Part shown: positions 9,194 to 64,000 of the stretch, one piece after another
Numbering within the stretch: position 1 is the stretch's first letter
Layout of the letters: each line of letters opens with the position of its first letter
From: a virus
Taxonomy: Duplodnaviria > Caudoviricetes
DNA length: 64,000 bases
Direction: 5' to 3' (one strand)
Virus record (IMG/VR): IMGVR_UViG_3300043177_000122
Span: 32,001 to 96,000 of that record
Position numbers and translations under genes: made by a program
The notes under the pieces: generated by a model
What the model was told of the DNA's origin: nothing
Database searches by the model: none
What the model saw: the letters and a program-made list of their open reading frames with translations, nothing else

Positions 9194-9433
9194 ATGGAAA
9201 ATCCAGCAACGTGGACTCCGCTTCATCATGAGATTCATGAAGCGTATTATAGATCTCCAGATGGAACTAGTGCAGTTCTAAAAGTATTACAAAACCATAA
9301 TTATCGTGTTACAGCGGAACAAGTTCAAGCTGTTATTAATTAGCACAATGAAGATATGGAACAACATATTTGTGGATTATCCTTGCCATCTATGGTAGTA
9401 AATGCATTGGCCAAGGAAGAAAACAAATGGTAA
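9194..9433 (+). pseudogene. Hypothetical protein with an in-frame TAG at 9341-9343
   Basis: MENPATW...VIN*HNEDMEQH...KW*; final stop overlaps the next start. Confidence 0.45.
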
Positions 9434-10347
9434 AAAGAATTGCAACTTTAGTTGGCTGTGCTGTTGGCGATGCGCTAGGCAACCCATTTGAGATGTGGCA
9501 TGTCTCTAAGCAAGGTCTCAAAGAATGGGATGGTCAGTTTAAGGCTGGTGGTACCTTTTGGGTCGGTGAAGCCGGTCAATATACTGATGATACCCTTATG
9601 AGTTTAGCTTTAGCTGGTTCTTTGCTTGAGAAGCAATGTTTTGATCAGGACCATGTTGCTGCTCAGTATCTAGCTTGGATGGAATCTGGTAACACCCGAG
9701 GCATTGGAGTAACCACTGCTAGGGCTCTTACAGGGCTCAAGATGGGCGCGACAGTTGAAGAGGCTGGCGTTACTCATCAGGAAGATGGAAAGCTTACTGG
9801 AGGTAATGGAACAGCTATGAGGGCATCTCCAATTGGTCTCTGGTATCGCAAAGATGTTGAAAAGTTAATCGAAGTAGCAATGGCTGATGCCACTATTACT
9901 CACAATTCATTCGAGCCAAAGATGGGTTCAGTGGCTGTTGCATTAGGTACAGCACTAATTGCCAATGGTTTAGATGACCGTATTGAAGTTGTTAGAACGG
10001 TTGCGGATATTGTTTCTGATTCTCTAGTAAAAGACAAATTACTGCTTGCTCTAAGGCACCTAGAAGAAGGGACCGATAATTTCGAGGCCCTTGCGGAGAT
10101 CGGCGTCAATGGCTATGCTCCTGAAACGGTTGGCGCAGCATTTTATTGTTTAGGCGCGAACAATAATTATAGAGATGTTGTAGTGTTAGCAGTCAAGGCT
10201 GGTGGAGATACCGATACTACTGCGGTAATAGCTGGGGCAATGGCCGGGACTTTATATGGATTAGAGGGCATTCCAGCGGAAGATAAAGTAGAGAATTTTG
10301 AGTTATTACAATCTTTGACAGACGAACTTGTCAATAACGAGATATAA
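9427..10347 (+). CDS. ADP-ribosylglycohydrolase (DraG/ARH family)
   Basis: GCAVGDALG, YTDDT, GNGTAMRASP, TH and GGDTDT motifs; start MVKRI. Confidence 0.92.
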   Translation: MVKRIATLVGCAVGDALGNPFEMWHVSKQGLKEWDGQFKAGGTFWVGEAGQYTDDTLMSLALAGSLLEKQCFDQDHVAAQYLAWMESGNTRGIGVTTARALTGLKMGATVEEAGVTHQEDGKLTGGNGTAMRASPIGLWYRKDVEKLIEVAMADATITHNSFEPKMGSVAVALGTALIANGLDDRIEVVRTVADIVSDSLVKDKLLLALRHLEEGTDNFEALAEIGVNGYAPETVGAAFYCLGANNNYRDVVVLAVKAGGDTDTTAVIAGAMAGTLYGLEGIPAEDKVENFELLQSLTDELVNNEI

Positions 10348-22752: not shown

Positions 22753-23655
22753 ATGAGTAATACAGAGCTAATTAGAGAGCTAAGAGCATTGACGTCAGCA
22801 GGGATGAAAGACTGTAAGGATGCACTTGAAGAATCCAATTGGGATTTGCAAAAGGCTGTTGATATTGTTAAGGTGAAGGGCCTCAATATTGCTGACGGTC
22901 GTACTGGACGTGTAGCCTCTGAGGGGCGTGTTGGTACTGCTGATACCCAAGATGATAAGCTTTATGTAATGGCCGAAGTTAATTGTCAAACGGATTTCGT
23001 AGCTAACAGCAAAGAGTTCAGGAGTTTTACTATTCAAGTTTTATCTTCTATTATGGAGTCTCATTTGACTGGTCAGACATGGTCAGTTGATAAAGTGGAA
23101 GAACTTCGAAAAGAAATTGTATCAAAAACCAAAGAGAATGTTGTTATTCGTAGATGGTGGATTGAGGAATCTCAGTCGCCACTTGTTCGAGTTTTCTCGT
23201 ACAGGCATTCTACTAGTAAAATTGCTGTATTGGTTACACTTGTGGCCCCAAATGAAGCTGCTGCTGACTCCGCGGAGTTTAAGACTCTCGGAGAGGAGCT
23301 GGCAATGCAAATTGCTGCTATGAATCCAGTTGCAGTTGATGCCGAACGCATTCCACAAGACGAGAAGGATCGTCAAAAGGCAATTTTTGAGATGCAACTC
23401 AAAGAGGAAAATAAGCCAGAGAAAATGTGGGAAAAGATTATGGAAGGCAAGTTCCGTAAGTGGAACACAGAAGTTTGTTTGCTTGAGCAGGAGTCGGTAG
23501 TTATACCCAAGACGACTGTAAGACAAGTGATTAAGAATGTTGGAACTAAGTTGGGTGGAGAAATTCAAGTTGTGAATTTTGTTCGCTGCCAAGTTGGTGA
23601 AGGTATTGAAAAGAAACAAGACAACCTCGCTGAGGAAGTTTCTAAAATGATGTAA
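22753..23655 (+). CDS. tsf: Elongation factor Ts
   Basis: LRALTSAGMKDCKDAL, EVNCQTDFVA, LAMQIAAMNP, FVRCQVGEG; promoter TTGACT-N16-TACATT at 22704-22731. Confidence 0.97.
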   Translation: MSNTELIRELRALTSAGMKDCKDALEESNWDLQKAVDIVKVKGLNIADGRTGRVASEGRVGTADTQDDKLYVMAEVNCQTDFVANSKEFRSFTIQVLSSIMESHLTGQTWSVDKVEELRKEIVSKTKENVVIRRWWIEESQSPLVRVFSYRHSTSKIAVLVTLVAPNEAAADSAEFKTLGEELAMQIAAMNPVAVDAERIPQDEKDRQKAIFEMQLKEENKPEKMWEKIMEGKFRKWNTEVCLLEQESVVIPKTTVRQVIKNVGTKLGGEIQVVNFVRCQVGEGIEKKQDNLAEEVSKMM

Positions 23656-23801: not shown

Positions 23802-25093
23802 TTGCTCATTGGCACAAGATATATAAACGGAAGGAAAAATAAGATGACTAGTGATGTAACTCAATTAATTGACAAGCTAACTAATGCTGTGTCTTTCAAA
23901 TATGCTGAGGATGCTACTTCTCCAAATGTTACCATCTCTAAGTTGCGTAAAGGATACTACTGTTCAGTAGTTCGTTATGCTAAGAGTGGTGCAACGCAGA
24001 AGAAGGTTGTTGTTTGTAATTCTAAAGCAGACAACTTGGAAGATGCAGTAAAGGGCGTAGTTACTGCTTTCTTGAAAGTAGCTCAGCCACAACTAGATCC
24101 TCTCCATGAATTGGATAAGTTAGCTAATGGATAAATCAAGCACTTTAGAAGAGTGCATGATAGCGCTCAATAAACTTCTTCACCCAGAGGACCAGGTGGA
24201 GCTTTTGAAGATGTCGAAAGATGATCTTATATCGCTTCATCATGGCCTTGGTCAGTGGATTAGAAATAATTGTGGCCTTTGGGAAGAATTGGATTTATTC
24301 CATCACATGAAATCTCTGGGATTCGTTCATCAAGACGATATGTCTCAAGCCATCATTGTTGAGTATTGGAATAGATTACATAACCAACCTTCTCAGTTAG
24401 AAGAAGATATTACTCATAGTAAAGCGTACTGGGAGGAACATGGATCGAAAGACTCTGCTTAAGGAAATGAAAGAATCGGTTGGAACACAAGAGCCAGTTG
24501 TTTTCTTTGCAAAAATGGTTGATGTATTAAATCTTTTGTTTGACCGCATCGACTCTTTAGAACAAGATGTCGCTGAAACCAAAATGAATGCCGCTCTTGC
24601 TATTCATTGGGAACCGAAAGTTGCTCGATCAATGATTACAGAACAAATTGATATACTTCGAGCTGATAAAGAGTCTTATGTAGAAGAGATCTCTGCTTTG
24701 AAAAAAGCTTTTATTGAAGATAAGGTCACACAAAACTACAGTGAATTCTGTTCCTTCTGGGAGGGAACTCTAGGCTTCCATCCATTTTTGGATTACAGAT
24801 GAAAAATACTATTGATGCATTTCACGATCTTATTGTTCATCTTCTCTTCTCTGACCGATGGAGAAATAAAGGACCAGGTAAGGTTGTAGAAAGTATGCCA
24901 GCGGAAGATCGTGAGGCCCTTTCTCAACTCAAATCTGATGATATTTCTCCTGAAAAAGCAAGAGTCGAAGACTATTGGATGATATTGCAAACGATTTTGT
25001 AGAAGTAGACAAACGCCAGTGGGCCAGCCCTTCAAAAAAAAAGATTGGTAAAAGAAAACTAGCGTTAGCAGGGTATATGTTAGACGAAACCAT
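23802..25093 (+). CDS. Run of hypothetical proteins (23802, 24127 DUF6794-like, 24440, 24799 frameshifted near 24972)
   Basis: ORF track; HHGLGQWIRNNCGLW in the 24127 ORF. Confidence 0.5.
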
Positions 25094-34069: not shown

Positions 34070-34531
34070 TGTGGCTTTTATTTCAAAGCAAGAACAGATG
34101 CAATTAAATCTTGAGCAACTAAAAGTTGTGGCTGTTTAACTGGTGATTTGATTTCATCTGGAAATAAACTATCAAATAATTTGGGAGCCATTAATTTAGT
34201 AAGAAGGCACTACAAACATAATGCAAAGAAAAGGGATTTAATTTTCAAGTTATCAGAAAAAGAATTTGAAAATTTCATATTTGGGAATTGTCATTATTGT
34301 GGGGCTGAGCCCAAATTAGTGAAATTTGCTAGTAGCTCTGAAAATAGAAGAGATAAAGAGATTATCTATAATGGTATAGATAGGATTAATAATTCTGTAG
34401 GATATGTATTGTCTAATTGTGTTACATGCTGTTCAATTTGTAATACAGCTAAATCTGATCTTTCATTTGAAGAATTTAATGATTGGATAAAAAGATTAGT
34501 GAGATATAATGGCCAACAAAAAAGTTTCTAA
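34070..34531 (+). pseudogene. HNH-type homing endonuclease with a disrupted N-terminus
   Basis: KSCGC, CHYCG, NGIDRINNSVGY..SNCVTCCSICN; no open start upstream. Confidence 0.7.
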
Positions 34532-36998
34532 ATTTCCGCCTAAACGTCCAGACAATTCACATATAATTAAAGCAAGATCGAAACATGACTGGTCAGATTA
34601 TCAGAAAGCAATTTTTCAAGATATTGCAAAGGGGAAAGATCACACTGTTGTAATTGCTAGGGCTGGCAGTGGGAAAACAAGCACTATTGTTGAAGGTTTT
34701 AGATATATTCCAAAAGGAACGAAAACTCTCATGGTTGCTTTTAATAAAAGTATAGCCGAGGAGTTAAAACAACGAGCCGCATCTTATATTGATGTAATGA
34801 CTCTTCATTCTTTGGGATTCAGAGCTATTAAACAAAGTTTTGGAACTGATGTTATTCTAGAGAATGACAAATGTAATATGCTTATCTCCACACTAATTGG
34901 AGATGATCGGGATATGTGGGAAGTGAATCAGAGCATTGCAAAGTGTGTTTCTCTTTGTAAGGGTTTTCTTGTAGATACTCCATCTAAAGTTGGAGATTTG
35001 ATTGACAAGTTTGGAATCGAAATATTCGATTATTCTAGAGAGAAATTTACTGAATTAGTCCTCAAGACATTAGCTTTGTGCAAAGCAAAGAAAAATGTCA
35101 TTGATTTTGACGATATGATTTGGTTTCCCTTCGTTTATCGTTTAAACGTAGGGAAATTCGATGTTGTTTTTGTTGACGAAGCTCAGGATCTAAATCAGGC
35201 ACAAATTGCCATGGTGTTATCGGCTTGTAAAGTAGATGGTCGCATTATTGCAGTTGGAGACCCGGCGCAATGTGTTGATGAAAATACTATGGTAAATGTT
35301 GACGGAGGTTGGGCTTCCGTTAAAGATTGTAAAGTTGGACAATATATACTTTGCTATAATAATAGCAAATTAGATAGTAAAAAAATTATCAACAAAGTAA
35401 AATCTAATTGGGAATATGGTTATGAAATAACAACGTATTCTGGTAAGAAATTATTGATGTCCCCGAACCATAAGATTTGGGCGTCTGCACCAATGCTTGA
35501 CGAACAATATATTGTTTATTTGATGTATAGACCAGATTTAGGTTTTAGAGTAGGTAAAACTAATACGTGGAAGGATACAAATTATCCATTTGGTTTAAGA
35601 GCTAATTCTGAAAATGCAACCAAACTTTGGGTTCTTGATATTGCAAACTCTAATGAAGAAGCTCTGTTATTGGAAGAGCAGTATTCTTTAAGATATAAAA
35701 TTCCTACATCTGTATTTAATGGTGAACATAGAAATATCAATCAAGAAAGATTAAATACAATTTTTGCAGAGTTTGGAAAAAATGGACACTTTCTTCTTAA
35801 AGATAAAAATCTGCATTTTGCATACCCACATTGGATGGCTTCCTCTAATTCTAAAATCAATAGAAGAACTGTTAGGGTAAATGCTCATTCTAAAAAAGGA
35901 ACTCAAGTAACTTTGGAGTGGAAAGACGACGCTTTAGATAAAGTGTTTATGAAACATGGGGTTATCTTTTCTAAAGGCAAGAATTCAAGAATTAGAAAAT
36001 ACTTCTCTGATTATACTAGCGCCTTATCGTTTGCAGGAATGATTGCACAACTTTCTGGCGGAGAAGTTAACGAAAGATTATCGATTAATGATAATCCATA
36101 TTTGATTACCGCATCAGGTCTTCATGTTGGAATGAAAGTATATTCTTTACTTAAAAATCAACTTGTTGATGATATGATTATCAGTATAGATAAAAAATCC
36201 GGCTCATTTTATGATTTGGAAGTAGAAGAATCGGCCAATTTCATTGGTAATAATATTCTGAGCCACAATTCTATTTACCAGTTCCGAGGAGCTGATAGTG
36301 AGGCTATTCCAAACTTTATTGATAAGCTTAAAGCCAAAACTTTACCATTGTCCGTTACCTACCGCTGTCCGATCAAGGTGGTAGACCTAGCGAAGGAAAT
36401 TGTACCTGACATTGAGGCGGCCGAGAATGCCAAGGATGGGGTGGTAGAAGAGGTTCCAGCAGAACAATTTCTTAAATTGGTTAGGCCGGGGGACTTTGTG
36501 CTCTCTAGGACGAACGCCCCTTTGATTAAACACTGTATGGCTTTGCTAAAAGCAGGGGTACCAGCCAATATTCAAGGAAGAGATGTTGGCGCCAATCTAC
36601 AATATTTCATTAAAAAATCCAAATCAAAGACTATTGTTCAATTTACAGAATATGTAAATGCATGGAGAGAACAAGAAGTTAAGCGACTATTGGCTGAGAA
36701 AAAAGATCCAATTGCAACTATCGATAAAGCAGAATGTTTATTGAACCTCTGTGAAGGAACCCTTACTATTAAGGACCTAAAAGAGACAATAGAAAAGCTG
36801 TTCAACGATGTTAATGATACTGCTAAAGTTATTTTTTCAACAACACATAAAGCCAAAGGTTTGGAACGCGATAGAGTCTTTGTTCTCACCAACACCTACC
36901 GAAAAGGAGCCGGAGGAGAAGAAGACAACCTCTGGTATGTCGCGGTAACTCGTAGTAAATCTGAGTTGTACCTGGTAAAGAAATACTTGAAGCAATAA
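34509..36998 (+). CDS. UvrD/Rep-type SF1 helicase containing an intein
   Basis: ARAGSGKT, DEAQD, GDPAQ|SIYQFRGA, YRCP, THKAKGLE, YVAVTR. Confidence 0.93.
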   Translation: MANKKVSKFPPKRPDNSHIIKARSKHDWSDYQKAIFQDIAKGKDHTVVIARAGSGKTSTIVEGFRYIPKGTKTLMVAFNKSIAEELKQRAASYIDVMTLHSLGFRAIKQSFGTDVILENDKCNMLISTLIGDDRDMWEVNQSIAKCVSLCKGFLVDTPSKVGDLIDKFGIEIFDYSREKFTELVLKTLALCKAKKNVIDFDDMIWFPFVYRLNVGKFDVVFVDEAQDLNQAQIAMVLSACKVDGRIIAVGDPAQCVDENTMVNVDGGWASVKDCKVGQYILCYNNSKLDSKKIINKVKSNWEYGYEITTYSGKKLLMSPNHKIWASAPMLDEQYIVYLMYRPDLGFRVGKTNTWKDTNYPFGLRANSENATKLWVLDIANSNEEALLLEEQYSLRYKIPTSVFNGEHRNINQERLNTIFAEFGKNGHFLLKDKNLHFAYPHWMASSNSKINRRTVRVNAHSKKGTQVTLEWKDDALDKVFMKHGVIFSKGKNSRIRKYFSDYTSALSFAGMIAQLSGGEVNERLSINDNPYLITASGLHVGMKVYSLLKNQLVDDMIISIDKKSGSFYDLEVEESANFIGNNILSHNSIYQFRGADSEAIPNFIDKLKAKTLPLSVTYRCPIKVVDLAKEIVPDIEAAENAKDGVVEEVPAEQFLKLVRPGDFVLSRTNAPLIKHCMALLKAGVPANIQGRDVGANLQYFIKKSKSKTIVQFTEYVNAWREQEVKRLLAEKKDPIATIDKAECLLNLCEGTLTIKDLKETIEKLFNDVNDTAKVIFSTTHKAKGLERDRVFVLTNTYRKGAGGEEDNLWYVAVTRSKSELYLVKKYLKQ
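35271..36269 (+). mobile_element. Intein (333 aa) in helicase motif III
   Basis: C1 (CVDEN), block B SPNH, block F YDLEV, terminal HN followed by Ser+1; excision restores GDPAQSIYQFRGA. Confidence 0.93.
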
Positions 36999-38320: not shown

Positions 38321-38812
38321 ATGAAAGACTATGATACGCCAGAGGAGTGTGAAAAGAGAGCTTCTCAAGAAGATCCTATTGTTATGTACTTAATTGTTCA
38401 TGAAACATTGAATATGAGTACAGGTAAAACAGCAGCTCAATGCGCTCATGCATCTCAGATGTTAACGCTAGAGTACTTTGAAGCTAAAGATAAATCTCGT
38501 GAATTGCAAAAACAAATTCAAAAAACTACCGATCCTGATGAGTTGCTTGTAATGAAAAGTCTGTATGCCGATTATGGTCGCAAGTTATCTATTTTTGGTG
38601 AATGGATGGAAAACTCTTTCCGTAAAGTAGTGCTTCGAGCAGATGACAAAGAATGGGCAAAAATCAAGCAAGACTATGGCCAACATATGGTTATGGTGGT
38701 TGATGCTGGTTTGACAGAAATTCCCAGCGGCAGTGAGACGGTTATAGGTCTATGGCCTATGCGCAAAAGTCAGAGGCCAAAAACTGTTCAACACTTACAA
38801 GTCTTGAAATGA
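38321..38812 (+). CDS. Peptidyl-tRNA hydrolase 2 family
   Basis: MSTGKTAAQCAHA, KVVLRA, DAGLTEIPSGSETVIG; promoter TTGACT-N16-TAGAAT at 38286-38313. Confidence 0.92.
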   Translation: MKDYDTPEECEKRASQEDPIVMYLIVHETLNMSTGKTAAQCAHASQMLTLEYFEAKDKSRELQKQIQKTTDPDELLVMKSLYADYGRKLSIFGEWMENSFRKVVLRADDKEWAKIKQDYGQHMVMVVDAGLTEIPSGSETVIGLWPMRKSQRPKTVQHLQVLK

Positions 38813-39183: not shown

Positions 39184-39228
39184 AATGTACATGTCCAGGC
39201 TGGTATGGTACTAAGTATCCTTGGCCAC

Positions 39229-39789
39229 TTAGCTTATGTTCAATCTGACGAAATTTCTTTGTTAATAACAAACTATCAAACATTGGATACTCAATCTTGG
39301 TTTGATAATAATCTTCAGAAGATGATAAGTGTGGCTGCTGGCGTTGCGTCTAGTACTTTTACTACCGAATCTTGGAGAATTTGGATGGATGAGGATACTC
39401 CAAGTTTAAAGAAAATAGTACCAGCAATTTTTGATGCTAGAGCTTTTGTCCTTCCAAAAGAAGATGTTGTCAACTATTTCTTATGGCGTCAGCAGGATGC
39501 TACTAGAAACTCTGTGCAAATGTTAGCCCGATCTCTGTATTCGCACAAAGAGTGCACTAATAAAAATAACTCTGAATTACAAGAGTTGATTTTCCAAAAG
39601 GGAATCAACTGAAATGACTGCCCAACGTCACAAAAGCGTGGACGCTGTATTGTTAAAAAGTATACCAAAAAGTCTACTTTGAATCCTAAAGTTCAACAAT
39701 ATGAAACGGCACTTCGTAGTGAGTGGGAGGTTGATAATGAGATTCCTATCTTTTCACAAGATAGAAACTATATCAATCAATATGTCTAA
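39229..39789 (+). pseudogene. tRNA(His) guanylyltransferase Thg1-like remnant
   Basis: YVQSDEISL, FDAR, NYFLWRQQDATRNS, QKGIN*NDCPT..KRG; N-terminal half missing and Trp codon is TGA (39610-39612). Confidence 0.88.
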
Positions 39790-40117
39790 AAGTCAAATTA
39801 GAAAAGAACGCAAACGAAAACGTTTTAAACAAAAGAAAATAAACACTAAGCTAAAGAAGAAATTGTTTGGTCATCTGTTTATGGCGCCCTGTATTTATTG
39901 TAGGCGGGCCTTTTTATTATCTACATTAACAGTTGAACACATTACGCCATTATGCCTTGGTGGAACCAATGATCCATCTAATATTGCATTGGCATGCTTT
40001 CCTTGCAATAATGATAAGGGAAGAGAAGCTTGGTTCCAAAAACGTGAATTTAATAAGAAACACTATGAACAATATCACTCACAGTATCGAATTGAAAATT
40101 GGGAAAGGATTATATAG
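39782..40117 (+). CDS. HNH endonuclease
   Basis: CIYC...TVEHITPLCLGGTNDPSNIALACFPCN. Confidence 0.8.
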   Translation: MSKSQIRKERKRKRFKQKKINTKLKKKLFGHLFMAPCIYCRRAFLLSTLTVEHITPLCLGGTNDPSNIALACFPCNNDKGREAWFQKREFNKKHYEQYHSQYRIENWERII

Positions 40118-41132
40118 GAACCCAGCACACCCTTTGTGTATTGTCAAAGAGATGGTTTTTGATTATTTTGAAGATTTATCACGAATCGAAATTGATAATC
40201 CATATGTGCCTATTGAATATAATTTCGATAGACTACGTGTACCTACCGATCATCCTTCAAGACGTCCAACTGATACCTACTACAAGGATGATAAGAACTG
40301 CCTCCGCACCCATATGACATGTTATTTATATCCATTTGGGAAATCAGATACTGGTCAAAGTAAGCTTAAGTATATTACATGTGGTGACGTCTATCGAAAA
40401 GATACTATTGATGCTACACATTATCCAGTGTTCCATCAGATGGATGCATTTTGTATGGTTCCAGATGATGTAGATGTAAGGCAAGATTTGCGCAATAGGT
40501 TGCAAGGTTTAGTAAAACATCTTTTTGGCGAAAGCACAGAATGTCAGTTCTTAGAAGATTCAGAATATGAAGAGGTTTACTTTCCTTTTACAATTGATTC
40601 TGTCGAAGTGAGTGTTTCTTTACCGGATGAGCATGGCAAAATTAAACAACTAGAAATTTTAGGAGCAGGAACTGTCCATCCCGACATTATGGCCGATCTT
40701 GGTTTGCCAGGTAAAAAAGCGTGGGCTTTTGGTTTAGGTCTAGAAAGATTAGCTATGGTTATGTTCGGCATTCCTGATATTAGATTATTTTGGAGCACAG
40801 ATAAAAGATTTTTAAGTCAATTTACGCCGGGCAAGATTACCAAATTTAATCCTTACTCAAAATATGAGTCATGTTATAAAGACATTTCATTTTTCTTAAG
40901 TGAAAAATTTTCTTATAACGACCTCTGCTCTATCGCTAGAGATGAAGATGAGAACAACATAATTGAATCTATTTCATTGATTGATGAGTTCCAGGTTAAA
41001 GGCCGAACTTCGCAGTGTTATAGAATTACATATCGCTCCATGGATGGTACGTTACGAAACTCTGATGTAAATACAATTCAAAAATCAATCAGAGACCGAA
41101 TTATCCAAGAGCTAGGAGTAGAAGTAAGATGA
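40065..41132 (+). CDS. pheS: Single-chain (organelle-type) phenylalanyl-tRNA synthetase: catalytic domain plus FDX-ACB
   Basis: LRTHMT, GDVYRKDTIDATHYPVFHQMD, FPFT, AFGLGLERLAM..FGIPDIRLFW, then SKY..CYKDISF...SQCYRITYRSMD.TL anticodon-binding domain. Confidence 0.92.
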   Translation: MNNITHSIELKIGKGLYRNPAHPLCIVKEMVFDYFEDLSRIEIDNPYVPIEYNFDRLRVPTDHPSRRPTDTYYKDDKNCLRTHMTCYLYPFGKSDTGQSKLKYITCGDVYRKDTIDATHYPVFHQMDAFCMVPDDVDVRQDLRNRLQGLVKHLFGESTECQFLEDSEYEEVYFPFTIDSVEVSVSLPDEHGKIKQLEILGAGTVHPDIMADLGLPGKKAWAFGLGLERLAMVMFGIPDIRLFWSTDKRFLSQFTPGKITKFNPYSKYESCYKDISFFLSEKFSYNDLCSIARDEDENNIIESISLIDEFQVKGRTSQCYRITYRSMDGTLRNSDVNTIQKSIRDRIIQELGVEVR

Positions 41133-41647
41133 AAACTGTCTATATCTTTTTTGGAGAAATGGGAAGTGGTAAAAGCTATTGTGGTTCCCGCTATGCAGAG
41201 AAGCATGGTTTCAAGTTTTTCGAAGGAGATAGTGTGGTCACTCCTCGTATGTTAGAGCGAGTTTCTAAGTTCAAAGCTATCAGTGAAGATATCTTAGAAG
41301 AATATATGGATGTTTTGGCTGATGCAATTGCCGATCAAATGACAGATTGTGAACATCTTGTTGTATCACAAGCTTTATACCGAGATGAAGATAGAAAATC
41401 TATGATTACTTTTCTTGAGTGCTTAGGTTATCAAGTAAGAATGTGGTGGGTCCAAGTTAAATGGAATCGTAACATTCAGAACTTGCTTACTAGACCAAAC
41501 GGATGGAAATGGGTTTTGTATTGGTTAATTAATAAACCATTCTTTCAAAGGCCCACTCATGTCCATCAGTTGTTTTACAATATATATATGGGTGAGCACA
41601 ATGGAGAACAAGGAAACCTTTCAAGCCAGAATTCAACCTTACTTTAG
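41129..41647 (+). CDS. P-loop small-molecule kinase (gluconate/shikimate kinase-like)
   Basis: GEMGSGKS...FFEGD. Confidence 0.7.
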   Translation: MKTVYIFFGEMGSGKSYCGSRYAEKHGFKFFEGDSVVTPRMLERVSKFKAISEDILEEYMDVLADAIADQMTDCEHLVVSQALYRDEDRKSMITFLECLGYQVRMWWVQVKWNRNIQNLLTRPNGWKWVLYWLINKPFFQRPTHVHQLFYNIYMGEHNGEQGNLSSQNSTLL

Positions 41648-42233
41648 TCCATCAGATCAATTGGACGTTAAACTGGCATATTGCTTAGCTAAGTTTGGTC
41701 ATCGCGCCCAAACAAGAAAAGAGCTTACGGAAGGTAAACCCACTAGATATTTTGAGCATGTACGTAGAGTAGCAATTGTTCTTATGGATGAAATGAAAAT
41801 CATTGATCGTGATATGATTATTACCGCTCTACTTCATGATTCAATCGAAGATACACATGATTTAACGCCAGAACTATTAGAGCATTGCTTTGGATCTGAT
41901 GTAATCACTATGATTAAGCTGCTTAGCAAAGTTCCCAAGGAAGGATACATTGAGAGATTAGGAAATTGCCATAACTGGAAAGTATTAGCAATTAAAGCTT
42001 GTGATAGATTAGATAATCTGCGATCTTTAATGATACCGGGGACCAGTTTGGAGTTTCAAAAGAAACAAATTGCAGAAACTAAAGAAAAGTATTTCCCTAT
42101 ATTTGACAAGCTGATTAATAATCTATGTCCTCAAGAACACGTTGAAAATGTTTCGAAGGTCCGAGATGAAATTAGAAGATTAATTGAGCGATATAATACC
42201 ATTATTGAATTTCAGGAAGGAAAAACTGCATGA
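41601..42233 (+). CDS. HD-domain protein, SpoT/Mesh1-like small alarmone hydrolase
   Basis: HRAQTRK, YFEHVRRVA, ALLHDSIED, KACDRLDNLR. Confidence 0.8.
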   Translation: MENKETFQARIQPYFSPSDQLDVKLAYCLAKFGHRAQTRKELTEGKPTRYFEHVRRVAIVLMDEMKIIDRDMIITALLHDSIEDTHDLTPELLEHCFGSDVITMIKLLSKVPKEGYIERLGNCHNWKVLAIKACDRLDNLRSLMIPGTSLEFQKKQIAETKEKYFPIFDKLINNLCPQEHVENVSKVRDEIRRLIERYNTIIEFQEGKTA

Positions 42234-49567: not shown

Positions 49568-51064
49568 ATGAGTTTACCTGTCATTAAGGACCAATCCGTT
49601 ATTGATCGTATTAAAGTTGTAGAGTCTGTCAAGGGATGGACTTTAAACTTTACTGACATTGTAAATAACAACAACAAGTTCTATAATCTTGAAGTTGTGA
49701 AATCGTCAGATAATAGTTTCTATCTGTATACTGTGTATGGAAGAGTTGGAGCTAGCGGTGCTAAAGAGTATCGCGCTTGTTCTTCTCTTGCTCAGGCAGA
49801 AAAAGAAGCTGAAAGCATTATCAAATCCAAGAACAAAAAGGGATATATTGAAGTTAAACTTGCTAAAGCAGATGTTGGGTCTGAACAAGGTAAAGAGAAA
49901 GTGGATATTTCTGTTACCGTTGAGTCTTTGAAAAAGGCTGGCGTTCAAGTAAAAGAGGAGCCGCAAGTTGCAAGCAAATTGCACCCCGAGGTTCAAGATC
50001 TAGTTCGTACTTGGTTCGGTGTTACACAAGAGTTCGTCGAGTTGAACTTGGATACTAAGAAGTGCCCGCTTGGTCAATTATCTCTTGATCAGATTGATAA
50101 AGCCAAACAGATTCTTGGTGAAGCAACCAAGATTGTTAATCTCAAGAAACCAGATGTTGATGAGCTTAACAGTTTGACTAGCCAATACTACTCTAACATT
50201 CCACACGTACTCCCACATAGAATTAATGCCGATCTTCTGCGCTTTGATGATATGGCAAAGATTACTAAAGCACAAGATATTCTTGATGTCTTTGCAGATG
50301 CTAAAAATGTTCAAGCAGTTATTTCCAAGAAAAGCGCTGTAGATTCACAGTACGCAACCTTAAACGCTGGACTTGAGTATGTAGAACCTACCGATCCAAC
50401 TTGGAAATGGCTTGAGGCAATGGTTCATGAAACCCGCGCTTCAAATCACTCTGGTTTAGGTAAGATTAAAGTTCATAAAATCTTCAAACTTGCTCGTAAT
50501 GATGAGCAAAAACATTTTCTTGAGACGGCTGGTAAGATTGCCAAAGAATGTGGAAATTGGAATCCCTCTCCAATCTACTCTAACTTGGTTAAGAGGCGCC
50601 CTGATGTTCCGAAGGAGTTACAAGAGCTTTATGCTAAAGCTAACATCCTTCCAGGTTGGCACGGCACTCGTAGAGCCAATATGATTGGTATTACTACTAA
50701 AGGGTTGTTGATTCGCCCATCTGGTGTTATCCATGCGGGGTCTATGTATGGTGATGGTATTTATTGGGCCGTTCATAGCACTAAGTCTATTAATTATTGT
50801 GATGTCAAAGGCTCTTACTGGGCTCAGGGTGCTAATAAAACCGCTTATCTCTTCTTAGGAGACGTAGCCTTCGGTAATCAAAAAATGGCTGGCGGATCCT
50901 ACATGTATACCAAGAAGAACATTGCTCCAAACCATTCGGTGTGGGCCAAGTCTGGTGGTTGCTCAGGTCTATACAACGATGAGCTGATTACATATACTGC
51001 ATCTGGTCATGGCCAACAGCATGTACTTCGTTATATCATCGAATTTGAAACGCAGGCTCGCTAA
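49568..51064 (+). CDS. Poly(ADP-ribose) polymerase-like protein: WGR, regulatory and catalytic domains
   Basis: FYNLEV...YGRVG (WGR); SKLHPEVQ...PLGQLS...YYSNIPH (PARP_reg); WHGT, GSMYGDGIYWA, YNDELITY (H-Y-E triad). Confidence 0.93.
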   Translation: MSLPVIKDQSVIDRIKVVESVKGWTLNFTDIVNNNNKFYNLEVVKSSDNSFYLYTVYGRVGASGAKEYRACSSLAQAEKEAESIIKSKNKKGYIEVKLAKADVGSEQGKEKVDISVTVESLKKAGVQVKEEPQVASKLHPEVQDLVRTWFGVTQEFVELNLDTKKCPLGQLSLDQIDKAKQILGEATKIVNLKKPDVDELNSLTSQYYSNIPHVLPHRINADLLRFDDMAKITKAQDILDVFADAKNVQAVISKKSAVDSQYATLNAGLEYVEPTDPTWKWLEAMVHETRASNHSGLGKIKVHKIFKLARNDEQKHFLETAGKIAKECGNWNPSPIYSNLVKRRPDVPKELQELYAKANILPGWHGTRRANMIGITTKGLLIRPSGVIHAGSMYGDGIYWAVHSTKSINYCDVKGSYWAQGANKTAYLFLGDVAFGNQKMAGGSYMYTKKNIAPNHSVWAKSGGCSGLYNDELITYTASGHGQQHVLRYIIEFETQAR

Positions 51065-61530: not shown

Positions 61531-62490
61531 ATGAGAATTCTGTCGGGTATACAACCGTCAGGAACAATTCACATCGGCAACTATTTTGGAATGATCAAGC
61601 CCTTGGTCGATTTACAAGGTAAGGGAGAAGTGTATTGTTTCCTTGCGGATTATCATTCAATGACATCATTGTTTGATGCAAAAGAACGTAAAGCAAATTC
61701 AATTGAAGCAGCAACTACACTGCTAGCGTGTGGCATGGATCCTAAAACTGTTTTGTTTCGACAGTCAGATAGTCAGTCAGTGACTGAGCTAGCATGGATG
61801 CTTTCTACTGTAACTCCAATGGGCCTTTTAGAAAGGTGTCATAGTTACAAAGATAAAACTTCTAAAGGCATCCCAACCAATCATGGTTTGTTTGCTTATC
61901 CTGTTTTGATGGCGGCTGATATCCTACTATACCAATCTAATTTGGTACCAGTAGGAAAAGATCAACTTCAGCATTTGGAAGTGACGCGAGATATTGCCGT
62001 CAAGTTCAATACTACGTATGGGGAAATATTTACACTCCCCGAGCCCTATATTCAAGAAGCGGTAGCAACTGTTCCTGGAACTGATGGACAGAAGATGTCT
62101 AAAAGTAATGGTAACACTATCGAAATCTTTGGAGATGAAAAAGTTCTTAAGAAAAAGATAATGTCTATTGTGATGGATAGCCGCTCGCTGGCCACGCCAA
62201 AACCAGATGCAGATAAGAATATTGCAATTCAACTTCTAAAATTAGTAGCTCCGATGAATGTTGCTGAAGAATATGAAATGGAATTGCGAGATGGCTATCT
62301 TGGTTATGGTCAGCTTAAGAATGTTCTATTCGAACAATATTTTAGTTATTTTGAGAAACCAAGAGCATTGTATCAGGAATTGAAGAAGAATCCGGACTAT
62401 GTAGAGCAAATTCTTCAAGAAGGTGCAGAACATGCCCGCTATCAAGCCCATCGTACGATGGAAAAAGTAAGAGAAGTAGTGGGTTTATGA
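61531..62490 (+). CDS. trpS: Tryptophanyl-tRNA synthetase
   Basis: SGIQPSG..HIGN, YPVLMAADIL, VPVGKDQ.QH.E.TRD, KMSKS. Confidence 0.97.
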   Translation: MRILSGIQPSGTIHIGNYFGMIKPLVDLQGKGEVYCFLADYHSMTSLFDAKERKANSIEAATTLLACGMDPKTVLFRQSDSQSVTELAWMLSTVTPMGLLERCHSYKDKTSKGIPTNHGLFAYPVLMAADILLYQSNLVPVGKDQLQHLEVTRDIAVKFNTTYGEIFTLPEPYIQEAVATVPGTDGQKMSKSNGNTIEIFGDEKVLKKKIMSIVMDSRSLATPKPDADKNIAIQLLKLVAPMNVAEEYEMELRDGYLGYGQLKNVLFEQYFSYFEKPRALYQELKKNPDYVEQILQEGAEHARYQAHRTMEKVREVVGL

Positions 62491-62932: not shown

Positions 62933-63616
62933 ATGAATAAATTAGTTGTATTTGATATCGCTGGCACCACAATTGAAGACAATGATGCGGTTGGTCAAGC
63001 TTTTTTGAAAGCTTTTTTATCGTTCGGGTTAAATCCAACCACTGAACAAATTAATAATGTGATGGGACTATCCAAACCACAATCTATCAAGATTATTCTG
63101 AAAGAGCTAGATAACACTACTCCAATTGCTGAAATACACGATCAGTTTTTAAAGAATATGATTGAGCATTATAGTCTTGATGAAAATATAAAAGAAATAC
63201 CTGGAGCTGCTGAAACATTCAACACCCTACATGAAATGGACTATTATGTAGCTCTTGATACTGGATTTAGTCGAGACATTACAAATATCATTCTAGATAA
63301 GCTAGGATGGGTTAACCAAGGATTAGTAGATGCTGTTGTTAGCAGCGATCAAGTCAAATATGGAAGACCTTATCCATATATGATATTCAAGTTAATGGAG
63401 ACGCTCCATATCAAAAGCGTCCATGATGTTGTAAAAGTTGGCGATACTGTCGCCGATATTTATGAAGGTTTAAATGCTGGGTGTGATGTAGTAATAGGCG
63501 TCACTACTGGAACAGAGACTAAACAATCTTTCAAAGAAAAATTATCCGGGTGTCACTACTGTGTAATGGATGACATTACAGAAGTGCCCGCTTGTTTACA
63601 TTACACTCCTATTTGA
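62933..63616 (+). CDS. HAD-family hydrolase (phosphonatase-like)
   Basis: FDIAGT, DTG, GRPYPYMI, KVGDT..DI.EG. Confidence 0.88.
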   Translation: MNKLVVFDIAGTTIEDNDAVGQAFLKAFLSFGLNPTTEQINNVMGLSKPQSIKIILKELDNTTPIAEIHDQFLKNMIEHYSLDENIKEIPGAAETFNTLHEMDYYVALDTGFSRDITNIILDKLGWVNQGLVDAVVSSDQVKYGRPYPYMIFKLMETLHIKSVHDVVKVGDTVADIYEGLNAGCDVVIGVTTGTETKQSFKEKLSGCHYCVMDDITEVPACLHYTPI

Positions 63617-63623
63617 GGAAGTC

Positions 63624-64000
63624 ATGTCTAATATATTCGAAGATTTGGAGCAGCGTGGTTTGATTAAACAAACAACCAACGCAGATAAGTTGCGTCAACT
63701 ATTTAACTCAAATACTCCAGTCACGTTTTACATTGGATTTGACCCCACTTCTGATAGTTTACATATAGGCCACTTACTTCAAGTAGTAACAGCTAAGCGA
63801 CTAGTCCAAGCTGGGCATCGAGCTATCATGTTAGTTGGCGGAGCAACCGCTTTGATTGGAGATCCGACAGGCAAGTCAGAAATGCGAAAAATGCTTTCTC
63901 ATTCTGATATTAGGGTAAATGGTGAAGCCATCGGCGCCCAGATTCAAAAAATAATGGGAAGAGAAATTGAATTAGTCAATAACCTAACTTGGTTTGATGA
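63624..64000 (+). CDS. tyrS: Tyrosyl-tRNA synthetase (5' part; runs off the window, so absent from the ORF track)
   Basis: RBS GAGGA; EQRGLIKQ, YIGFDPTSDSLHIGHL, LVGGATALIGDPTGKSEMRK. Confidence 0.95.
   Translation, partial: MSNIFEDLEQRGLIKQTTNADKLRQLFNSNTPVTFYIGFDPTSDSLHIGHLLQVVTAKRLVQAGHRAIMLVGGATALIGDPTGKSEMRKMLSHSDIRVNGEAIGAQIQKIMGREIELVNNLTWFD

Follow-up and report, generated by a model that had tools for sequence, protein, structure and literature searches.

Textbooks and the structural literature treat the one-chain phenylalanyl-tRNA synthetase (PheRS) as a mitochondrial peculiarity. The mitochondrial monomer has been described as chimeric, with the core of the alpha subunit joined to the B8 domain. 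As a monomer, human mitochondrial PheRS is fully active (PMC3275996). Klosneuvirus-like members of the Nucleocytoviricota encode an organellar-type, alpha-only PheRS that groups with the organellar enzymes and was proposed to be a monomer (Mol Biol Evol 2024, PMC11304981); phages are not mentioned in that paper. In huge phages that carry many tRNAs together with synthetases, the synthetases have been proposed to charge the variant tRNAs that these phages encode (Al-Shayeb et al. 2020, PMC7162821). Here we analyzed a 64,000-nucleotide stretch (the window) comprising bases 32001 to 96000 of the 358,993-bp IMG/VR record IMGVR_UViG_3300043177_000122, which CheckV estimated to be 83% complete. The gene at window positions 40065–41132 (+ strand) starts with ATG and encodes a 355-residue single-chain PheRS plus stop (protein P0001), which we consider likely, from its sequence, to be a working enzyme of the mitochondrial type (PheRS-M).

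The longest frame at this locus opens at TTG 39933. As the N-termini of the relatives ('MNNI...') all begin at the position of the ATG, the coordinates 40065–41132 are right. A promoter scan near the gene returned promoters no better than those in shuffled sequences, and no Shine-Dalgarno-like sequence was evident before the ATG. The single chain joins a class II catalytic core (residues 17–253, window 40113–40823, + strand; PF01409 tRNA-synt_2d, E 4.8e-50) to an FDX-ACB (B8-type) anticodon-binding domain (residues 265–355, window 40857–41129, + strand; PF03147, E 2.7e-17), and its C-terminus matches positions 698–798 of the pheT model TIGR00472. A first-pass annotation of the window had called a single-chain PheRS here and described it as a 355-residue catalytic domain fused to FDX-ACB. 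The call and the fusion are borne out, but 355 residues is the length of the whole protein rather than of the catalytic domain alone.

Profile scores placed the protein with the mitochondrial enzymes. It scored 260.8 bits against the NCBIfam mitochondrial PheRS equivalog TIGR00469 (cut-off 258.35), a marginal pass, and 166.8 bits against the canonical pheS model TIGR00468, below the threshold of 237.45. The best solved relatives were six entries of human mitochondrial PheRS (E ~1e-65), with both domains aligned. The alignment to the human crystal-structure chain (~34% identity) starts at its residue 28, without the N-terminal extension, indicating that the phage protein has no targeting peptide; the human insertion of ~30 residues after motif 2 is also absent. 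The catalytic core is homologous to bacterial PheS (30–35% identity), as it would be if the protein were a replacement alpha subunit that worked only with the host beta subunit. We regard that explanation as very improbable, because FDX-ACB, the anticodon-reading part of the beta subunit, is already present in the protein, which is also separated from PheS with full support in the trees described below and has a predicted two-domain fold that matches the self-sufficient human enzyme. In addition, its match begins at position 12 of PF01409 and at residues 97–101 of the canonical PheS sequences compared, so that the N-terminal extension of canonical PheS is missing.

The motifs gave the same picture. 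Single-chain enzymes have 'IDxxHYPVFHQ' in motif 2 and 'WAFG' in motif 3, whereas canonical PheS has 'DS-DxTHSPMFHQ' and 'FAFG'. The mitochondrial-style motif 2 noted in the first pass, DATHYPVFHQMD, is found at residues 116–127, and this form of motif 2 together with 'WAFG' separates the single-chain enzymes from canonical PheS. Motif 2 alone was rejected as a diagnostic of mitochondria, as a Patescibacteria clade has the same motif 2. Conservation was judged across alignments of 22, 56 and 102 homologues, of which the 56-homologue alignment spans 35–91% identity. The residues assigned were R111, D113, H119, F123, Q125 and D127 in motif 2, F173, F175, T176 and A221 in the Phe pocket, and G223, G225 and R228 in motif 3. 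Among the 56 homologues, R111, H119, F123, Q125, G223, G225 and R228 were invariant, while F173, F175, T176, A221, D273, F276, R292 and R355 were kept in at least 90%. F173, F175 and T176 correspond to the human pocket residues Phe232, Phe234 and Thr235, and D273, F276, R292 and R355 lie in the anticodon-binding domain.

An AlphaFold2 model computed from the 56-homologue alignment had a mean pLDDT of 95.0 and a pTM of 0.90. The top Foldseek match was 3CMQ, human mitochondrial PheRS, with a template modeling (TM) score of 0.89 and a root mean square deviation of 2.4 Å over 403 columns; this superposition covers the two domains as they are placed in the closed state. For 3TUP, the open form with bound tRNA, the TM score was 0.65, as the known domain swing predicts. 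Bacterial alpha subunits superposed on the core only, with TM scores of about 0.58 in Foldseek.

Two trees were built, one of 102 rows and a careful one of 45 rows (LG+C20 PMSF), from representatives of an exhaustive profile search, 45 IMG/VR loci, bacterial genome loci and a canonical PheS outgroup. Named eukaryotic sequences from an insect, a lancelet, a marsupial, fungi, a choanoflagellate, a fern, Euglena and Vitrella were added, together with Yasminevirus. The single-chain enzymes were split from PheS at 100/100. A Patescibacteria-type clade branched first among them (100/99), with the query outside it, and all other single-chain enzymes formed a crown group (98/98) that includes the organellar sequences and the query. 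Within the crown, a giant-virus clade (100/99), a Bacteroidota SrmL clade (100/100) and the phage clade with the query (99/96) were well supported. Monophyly of the eukaryotic sequences was weak (57/93; 64% of bootstrap trees), the backbone of the crown had no resolved order, and the query was not nested in eukaryotic sequences. The phylogeny that the first pass had proposed as a check therefore places the protein in the crown with the organellar enzymes and not with standard PheS. Its label of mitochondria-like is upheld by architecture, profile scores, predicted fold and phylogeny together, all of which place the protein with PheRS-M and away from standard PheS. Its statement that the single-chain form is typical of organelles is correct for organelles and too narrow as a rule, since the form also occurs in Patescibacteria, in Bacteroidota (SrmL), in giant viruses (PMC11304981) and in many huge phages. 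On these sequences the phage PheRS is mitochondrial-type in the family sense, and the data are silent on the direction of transfer. A bolder side reading, toward which the tree is neutral, is that huge phages rather than organelles were the reservoir of the crown group for giant viruses, Bacteroidota and eukaryotes.

Records that clustered with giant-virus metagenome-assembled genomes (MAGs) carry the capsid of nucleocytoplasmic large DNA viruses (NCLDV). The NCLDV capsid was not found in five phage-like records of 222–536 kb. The PHROG tail-sheath model had no match in the related huge-phage records, and the sheath protein of the query phage itself matched one of five; some records labelled 'IMG/VR other' are thus taken to be phages because they lack the NCLDV capsid and because IMG/VR classifies them so. 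Two side observations concern bacterial MAGs. A 460-residue single-chain PheRS in an actinobacterial MAG (L014; OZ255840.1, 'Lapillicoccus sp.' MAG chromosome, 5158336–5165643) groups on a short branch with the mitochondrial enzyme of the fungus Blumeria (SH-aLRT 100), which points to eukaryotic contamination, chimeric assembly or recent transfer. Frames of 1,055–1,188 residues that start with a PheS core were present at L047, L052–L057, L060, L066, L074 and L083, in MAGs of Oscillospiraceae, Christensenellales, Elusimicrobia and Terriglobales. These suggest putative fused PheS–PheT single chains, which would be of quite a different kind.

The gene is widespread and conserved among relatives of the phage. 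More than 120 protein clusters that are 70–91% identical to the PheRS occur on metagenomic contigs of up to 486 kb, and no frameshifted or truncated PheRS was seen among the relatives compared. The ratio of nonsynonymous to synonymous substitution rates (dN/dS) was 0.027 against relative L087 and 0.072 against relative L102; synonymous sites were saturated in the remaining comparisons. These values indicate a maintained gene under strong purifying selection, which by this sequence evidence is probably working. In the GenBank phage collection, a megablast search with 8 kb gave no match, and the only tblastn matches were to canonical PheS, from records that are contaminated or resemble prophages, apart from a weak match in a 635-kb uncultured phage.

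The order of genes around PheRS was kept in 17 IMG/VR loci, with members that are not always present given here in brackets: Kelch, Pth2, (SET), Thg1-like, (HNH), PheRS, (kinase), RelA/SpoT-type hydrolase, an open reading frame and NAD-ligase. All of the following genes are on the + strand of the window. Upstream lie a Pth2-type peptidyl-tRNA hydrolase (38321–38812; PF01981, E 2.8e-20), syntenic in the relatives, and a short Thg1-like protein of 135 residues (39205–39612) that matches positions 65–130 only of the PF04446 profile. The latter is without the N-terminal part of the Thg1 domain, yet it is 63–74% identical in 11 relatives. Between the Thg1-like gene and PheRS is a free-standing HNH endonuclease gene (39701–40117; PF14279 and PF01844), the last 53 nt of which overlap the start of PheRS. 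Only 6 of the 17 syntenic relatives have the HNH gene; in every case where the match extends to its end, it overlaps PheRS by ~50 nt, and it looks like an optional mobile homing-endonuclease passenger that is separate from the enzyme. The start of a P-loop kinase-like gene (AAA_33; 41129–41647), found only in the three closest relatives (L087–L089), overlaps the PheRS stop codon. Further downstream is a small RelA/SpoT-type HD hydrolase (41559–42233; PF13328, E 2.5e-10; hydrolase part of TIGR00691), syntenic in 15 relatives.

Several of these neighbors (Pth2, SET, Thg1-like and Kelch), as well as a PARP gene elsewhere in the window, are eukaryote-like, which would fit a PheRS gene that is a dead relic, or one that entered the contig recently from a eukaryote or as contamination. 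We find this scarcely credible given dN/dS values of at most 0.072, the synteny conserved in 17 phage loci, the missing targeting peptide, the phage tail genes on the contig and a position in the tree that is not nested among eukaryotic sequences. Those tail genes are a tail sheath and a tail fibre recognized by PHROG models, which identify the record as a contractile-tailed huge phage and support the earlier description of the genome as phage-like. The possibility that the contig belongs to a giant virus of eukaryotes was considered and rejected on the presence of the same two genes.

A search of the whole record was made for the partners that a PheRS might have. No pheT and no B3/B4 editing domain was found in the 358,993 bp (83% complete), the sole TIGR00472 match being the FDX-ACB domain of the PheRS itself. 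ARAGORN identified 57 tRNA genes in the record, among them two for tRNA-Phe(GAA), both outside the window, and none for tRNA-Trp. A TrpRS is encoded at window positions 61531–62490 (+ strand; PF00579; TIGR00233, 282.7 bits against a cut-off of 176.75), and the 5' part of a TyrRS gene at 63570–64000 (+ strand; PF00579 with SYY C-terminal and S4 domains). The full TyrRS gene (genome 95570–96835, 421 residues) is cut by the window end. The earlier observation that all three aromatic synthetases are in the window is therefore accurate for the genome and for TrpRS, which lies fully inside, but not for TyrRS. Eight other synthetase catalytic families (Pfam tRNA-synt_2b, 2, 1, 1c, 1g, 1d, 2c and 1e) were not found in the genome, and PheRS, TrpRS and TyrRS were the only synthetases detected in it. 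In a CheckV-complete 481-kb relative, a TrpRS-like and a TyrRS-like gene are likewise adjacent, and the class IIa and Ia families are absent. In two complete relatives from the clade (G009 and G010; 389 and 536 kb), where four families were looked for, PheRS was present and none of the Pfam class Ib, IIa and Ia families was found. Among these four families (PheRS itself plus classes Ib, IIa and Ia), PheRS was the one synthetase detected in several complete phage genomes, which agrees with its small gene: no other form of PheRS can be encoded in ~1 kb.

The two tRNA-Phe(GAA) genes are adjacent and lie ~8 kb upstream of the window, a divergent one (type 1) at genome positions 23823–23898 and a canonical-looking one (type 2) at 23908–23982. 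Both passed the Rfam tRNA threshold, with 39.1 and 67.5 bits. The canonical-looking gene is common to the query genome and its closest relative only. The divergent gene has counterparts at the equivalent position of the tRNA array in three related records (identities of 96, 90 and 76%), which include the CheckV-complete 481-kb genome, and no canonical-looking tRNA-Phe was found at the syntenic site of that genome. Eight more records of the clade, which are 14–47% complete fragments, had no match to it. In its cloverleaf, 8 of the 24 pairs show compensatory changes. The divergent tRNA has G8 and G14 in place of the usual U8 (53 of the 57 phage tRNAs) and A14 (49 of 57), and is the only phage tRNA with G14 and one of four without U8. 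These features suggest that the PheRS and the divergent tRNA-Phe may work as a pair.

In a narrower version of the explanation favored here, the remodelled PheRS would be dedicated to the G8/G14 tRNA-Phe, which the host PheRS would handle poorly, so that Phe decoding would survive host shut-off or a tRNA-directed defence. We hold this to be possible, though doubtful. It is favored by the retention of the divergent copy in all four related records whose sequence extends to the tRNA array, by the complete genome in which it is the copy found at the site, by its maintenance through compensatory changes, by its rare features among the 57 tRNAs, and by the location of PheRS among genes for tRNA end repair and rescue. 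However, the human mitochondrial enzyme is reported to be bacterial-like in substrate recognition (PMC3275996), and broad acceptance of tRNA-Phe is equally likely. The canonical-looking tRNA-Phe in the query genome and its closest relative also argues against a dedicated enzyme, as do the eight clade records without a match to the divergent tRNA, although these are incomplete.

The pocket is remodelled at three near-substrate positions that co-vary across the homologues. Ser/Gln/Glu occupies these positions in canonical PheS and in organellar, giant-virus, SrmL and most other phage enzymes; the residues are Thr85/Leu88/Asp127 in the 14-member phage clade of the query and Thr/Trp/Asp in the Patescibacteria clade. 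A residue-by-residue alignment to the human chain pairs Leu88 with Gln124 and Asp127 with Glu159, and these two human residues are reported to hydrogen-bond the hydroxyl of meta-tyrosine (PMC3275996). The query clade also has Asp in place of the proline of 'FPFTxPS' and a short insertion before 'YFPFT'. Such changes may alter amino-acid specificity; the pocket appears more hydrophobic and may reject hydroxylated analogues in an enzyme without proofreading. Retention of the aromatic pair and of Ala221 speaks for a Phe-like substrate. Combining pocket and tRNA, one could picture a phage-private pair: an editing-free PheRS whose pocket has become more hydrophobic (Ser to Thr, Gln to Leu, Glu to Asp) and, as its partner, a tRNA poorly charged by the host enzyme. 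We judge this rather unlikely. If true, this pair would, together with the phage TrpRS and TyrRS, allow aromatic codons still to be decoded when host charging is shut down or attacked.

The same pocket changes bear on whether the protein is an SrmL-like ligase, that is, a PheRS scaffold acting on another substrate or acceptor such as a modified aromatic amino acid or a non-tRNA target. NCBIfam has a separate model for the 'PheS-related mystery ligase SrmL' (NF051887), which the query matched end to end at 193.7 bits, a genuine SrmL member from Chryseobacterium (335 bits) lies in the same crown among viral sequences, and the residues that touch the ring meta position in the human enzyme (PMC3275996) are changed in the query. 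The score is nevertheless far under the SrmL cut-off of 300, and F173/F175, A221 and all of the ATP and motif residues are retained. The anticodon-binding invariants are likewise retained, related records that reach the tRNA array have a tRNA with the GAA anticodon, and the same Thr and Asp changes are found throughout the Patescibacteria clade. An SrmL-like function is therefore improbable. Separately, the protein of L008 (Chryseobacterium pennae) passed both cut-offs (SrmL, 335 against 300; pheS_mito, 293.7 against 258.35), showing that the two curated NCBIfam families overlap.

Several observations nonetheless weigh against a working PheRS-M. The TIGR00469 margin is just 2.4 bits, and other phage homologues score higher, at 293–373 bits. 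The subclade of the query is on a long branch (0.37) and carries the substrate-adjacent changes described above (Thr85, Leu88, Asp127, Pro to Asp and the insertion). NCBI curators label the Bacteroidota relatives in the crown a 'mystery ligase' whose function is unknown. Finally, the divergent tRNA-Phe of the query genome has a G2–A71 mismatch in the acceptor stem that is absent from its three orthologues.

Taking these points together, we still favor a working single-chain PheRS-M, whose activity, Phe specificity, monomeric state and charged tRNAs we infer; the monomeric, host-independent enzyme of the first-pass reading is likewise a prediction from homology. One polypeptide combines the class II core of the bacterial alpha subunit with the B8/FDX-ACB domain, which bacteria have at the end of the beta chain. 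If it acts like its human homologue, the core would activate Phe with ATP and the FDX-ACB domain would swing out of its closed position into an open one to read the GAA anticodon; the transfer of Phe to the tRNA would need no beta subunit and involve no proofreading. In the infected cell, the enzyme would most likely keep tRNA-Phe charged: that of the phage itself, in particular the divergent G8/G14 species, and probably that of the host as well. It would act within a conserved tRNA-maintenance block (Pth2, the Thg1-like protein and the RelA/SpoT-type hydrolase) and alongside the phage TrpRS and TyrRS.

Other genes of the window, all on the + strand, were noted in passing. An elongation factor Ts is encoded at 22753–23655 (TIGR00116; score 232.9 bits, cut-off 104). 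A UvrD-type helicase at 34509–36998 is split by an intein, with an Intein_splicing domain across residues 284–587. Two genes have a eukaryote-like domain make-up, an ADP-ribosylglycohydrolase at 9370–10347 and, at 49568–51064, the PARP mentioned above, which has WGR and PARP regulatory domains.

With this gene, a large and well-conserved huge-phage lineage joins the carriers of one-chain PheRS. This very small natural enzyme of 355 residues, with an unusual tRNA as its candidate cognate, could be of interest to genetic-code engineers and would make it possible to ask how tyrosine is rejected where there is no editing. No paper on single-chain PheRS in phages was found in a literature search that left out most subscription journals. 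The enzyme is not a new kind of system, as giant-virus homologues are published and bacterial relatives have already been modelled by NCBI.

The closest known system is mitochondrial PheRS (human FARS2, yeast Msf1; 'PheRS-M' in AARS Online; 3CMQ and 3TUP). Both are one chain with a core and an FDX-ACB/B8 domain and no editing domain, and they share motifs 2 and 3, the Phe/Phe/Thr pocket, the anticodon-domain invariants and, by prediction, the fold. The phage enzyme differs in its modest sequence identity, in lacking the targeting peptide and the insertion after motif 2, in having Leu88/Asp127 where the human enzyme has Gln124/Glu159, and in being encoded by a tailed phage rather than being nuclear-encoded or imported. 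Nuclear encoding and import define 'mitochondrial', not the enzyme type. Giant-virus PheRS (Yasminevirus, giant-virus MAGs and NCLDV-capsid records) is also virus-encoded and in the same crown group, but forms its own clade with the Ser/Gln/Glu pocket, whereas the query is in a separate phage clade. SrmL of Bacteroidota such as Chryseobacterium has the same length, two-domain architecture and crown-group membership; it differs in its distinct clade, in its Ser/Gln/Glu pocket and in a cut-off that the query does not reach. The single-chain PheRS of Patescibacteria (candidate phyla radiation) shares the architecture and has Thr and Asp at two positions that are also changed in the query, yet is cellular rather than viral and belongs to a separate deep clade outside the crown. 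Canonical (alpha-beta)2 PheRS (TIGR00468, TIGR00472) has a homologous catalytic core and anticodon-binding domain, but is an obligate heterotetramer encoded by two genes, with ~1,100 residues in total and an editing domain. Lastly, the query phage resembles the synthetase-carrying huge phages described by Al-Shayeb et al. (2020, PMC7162821), with the difference that its PheRS is not of the standard bacterial type.

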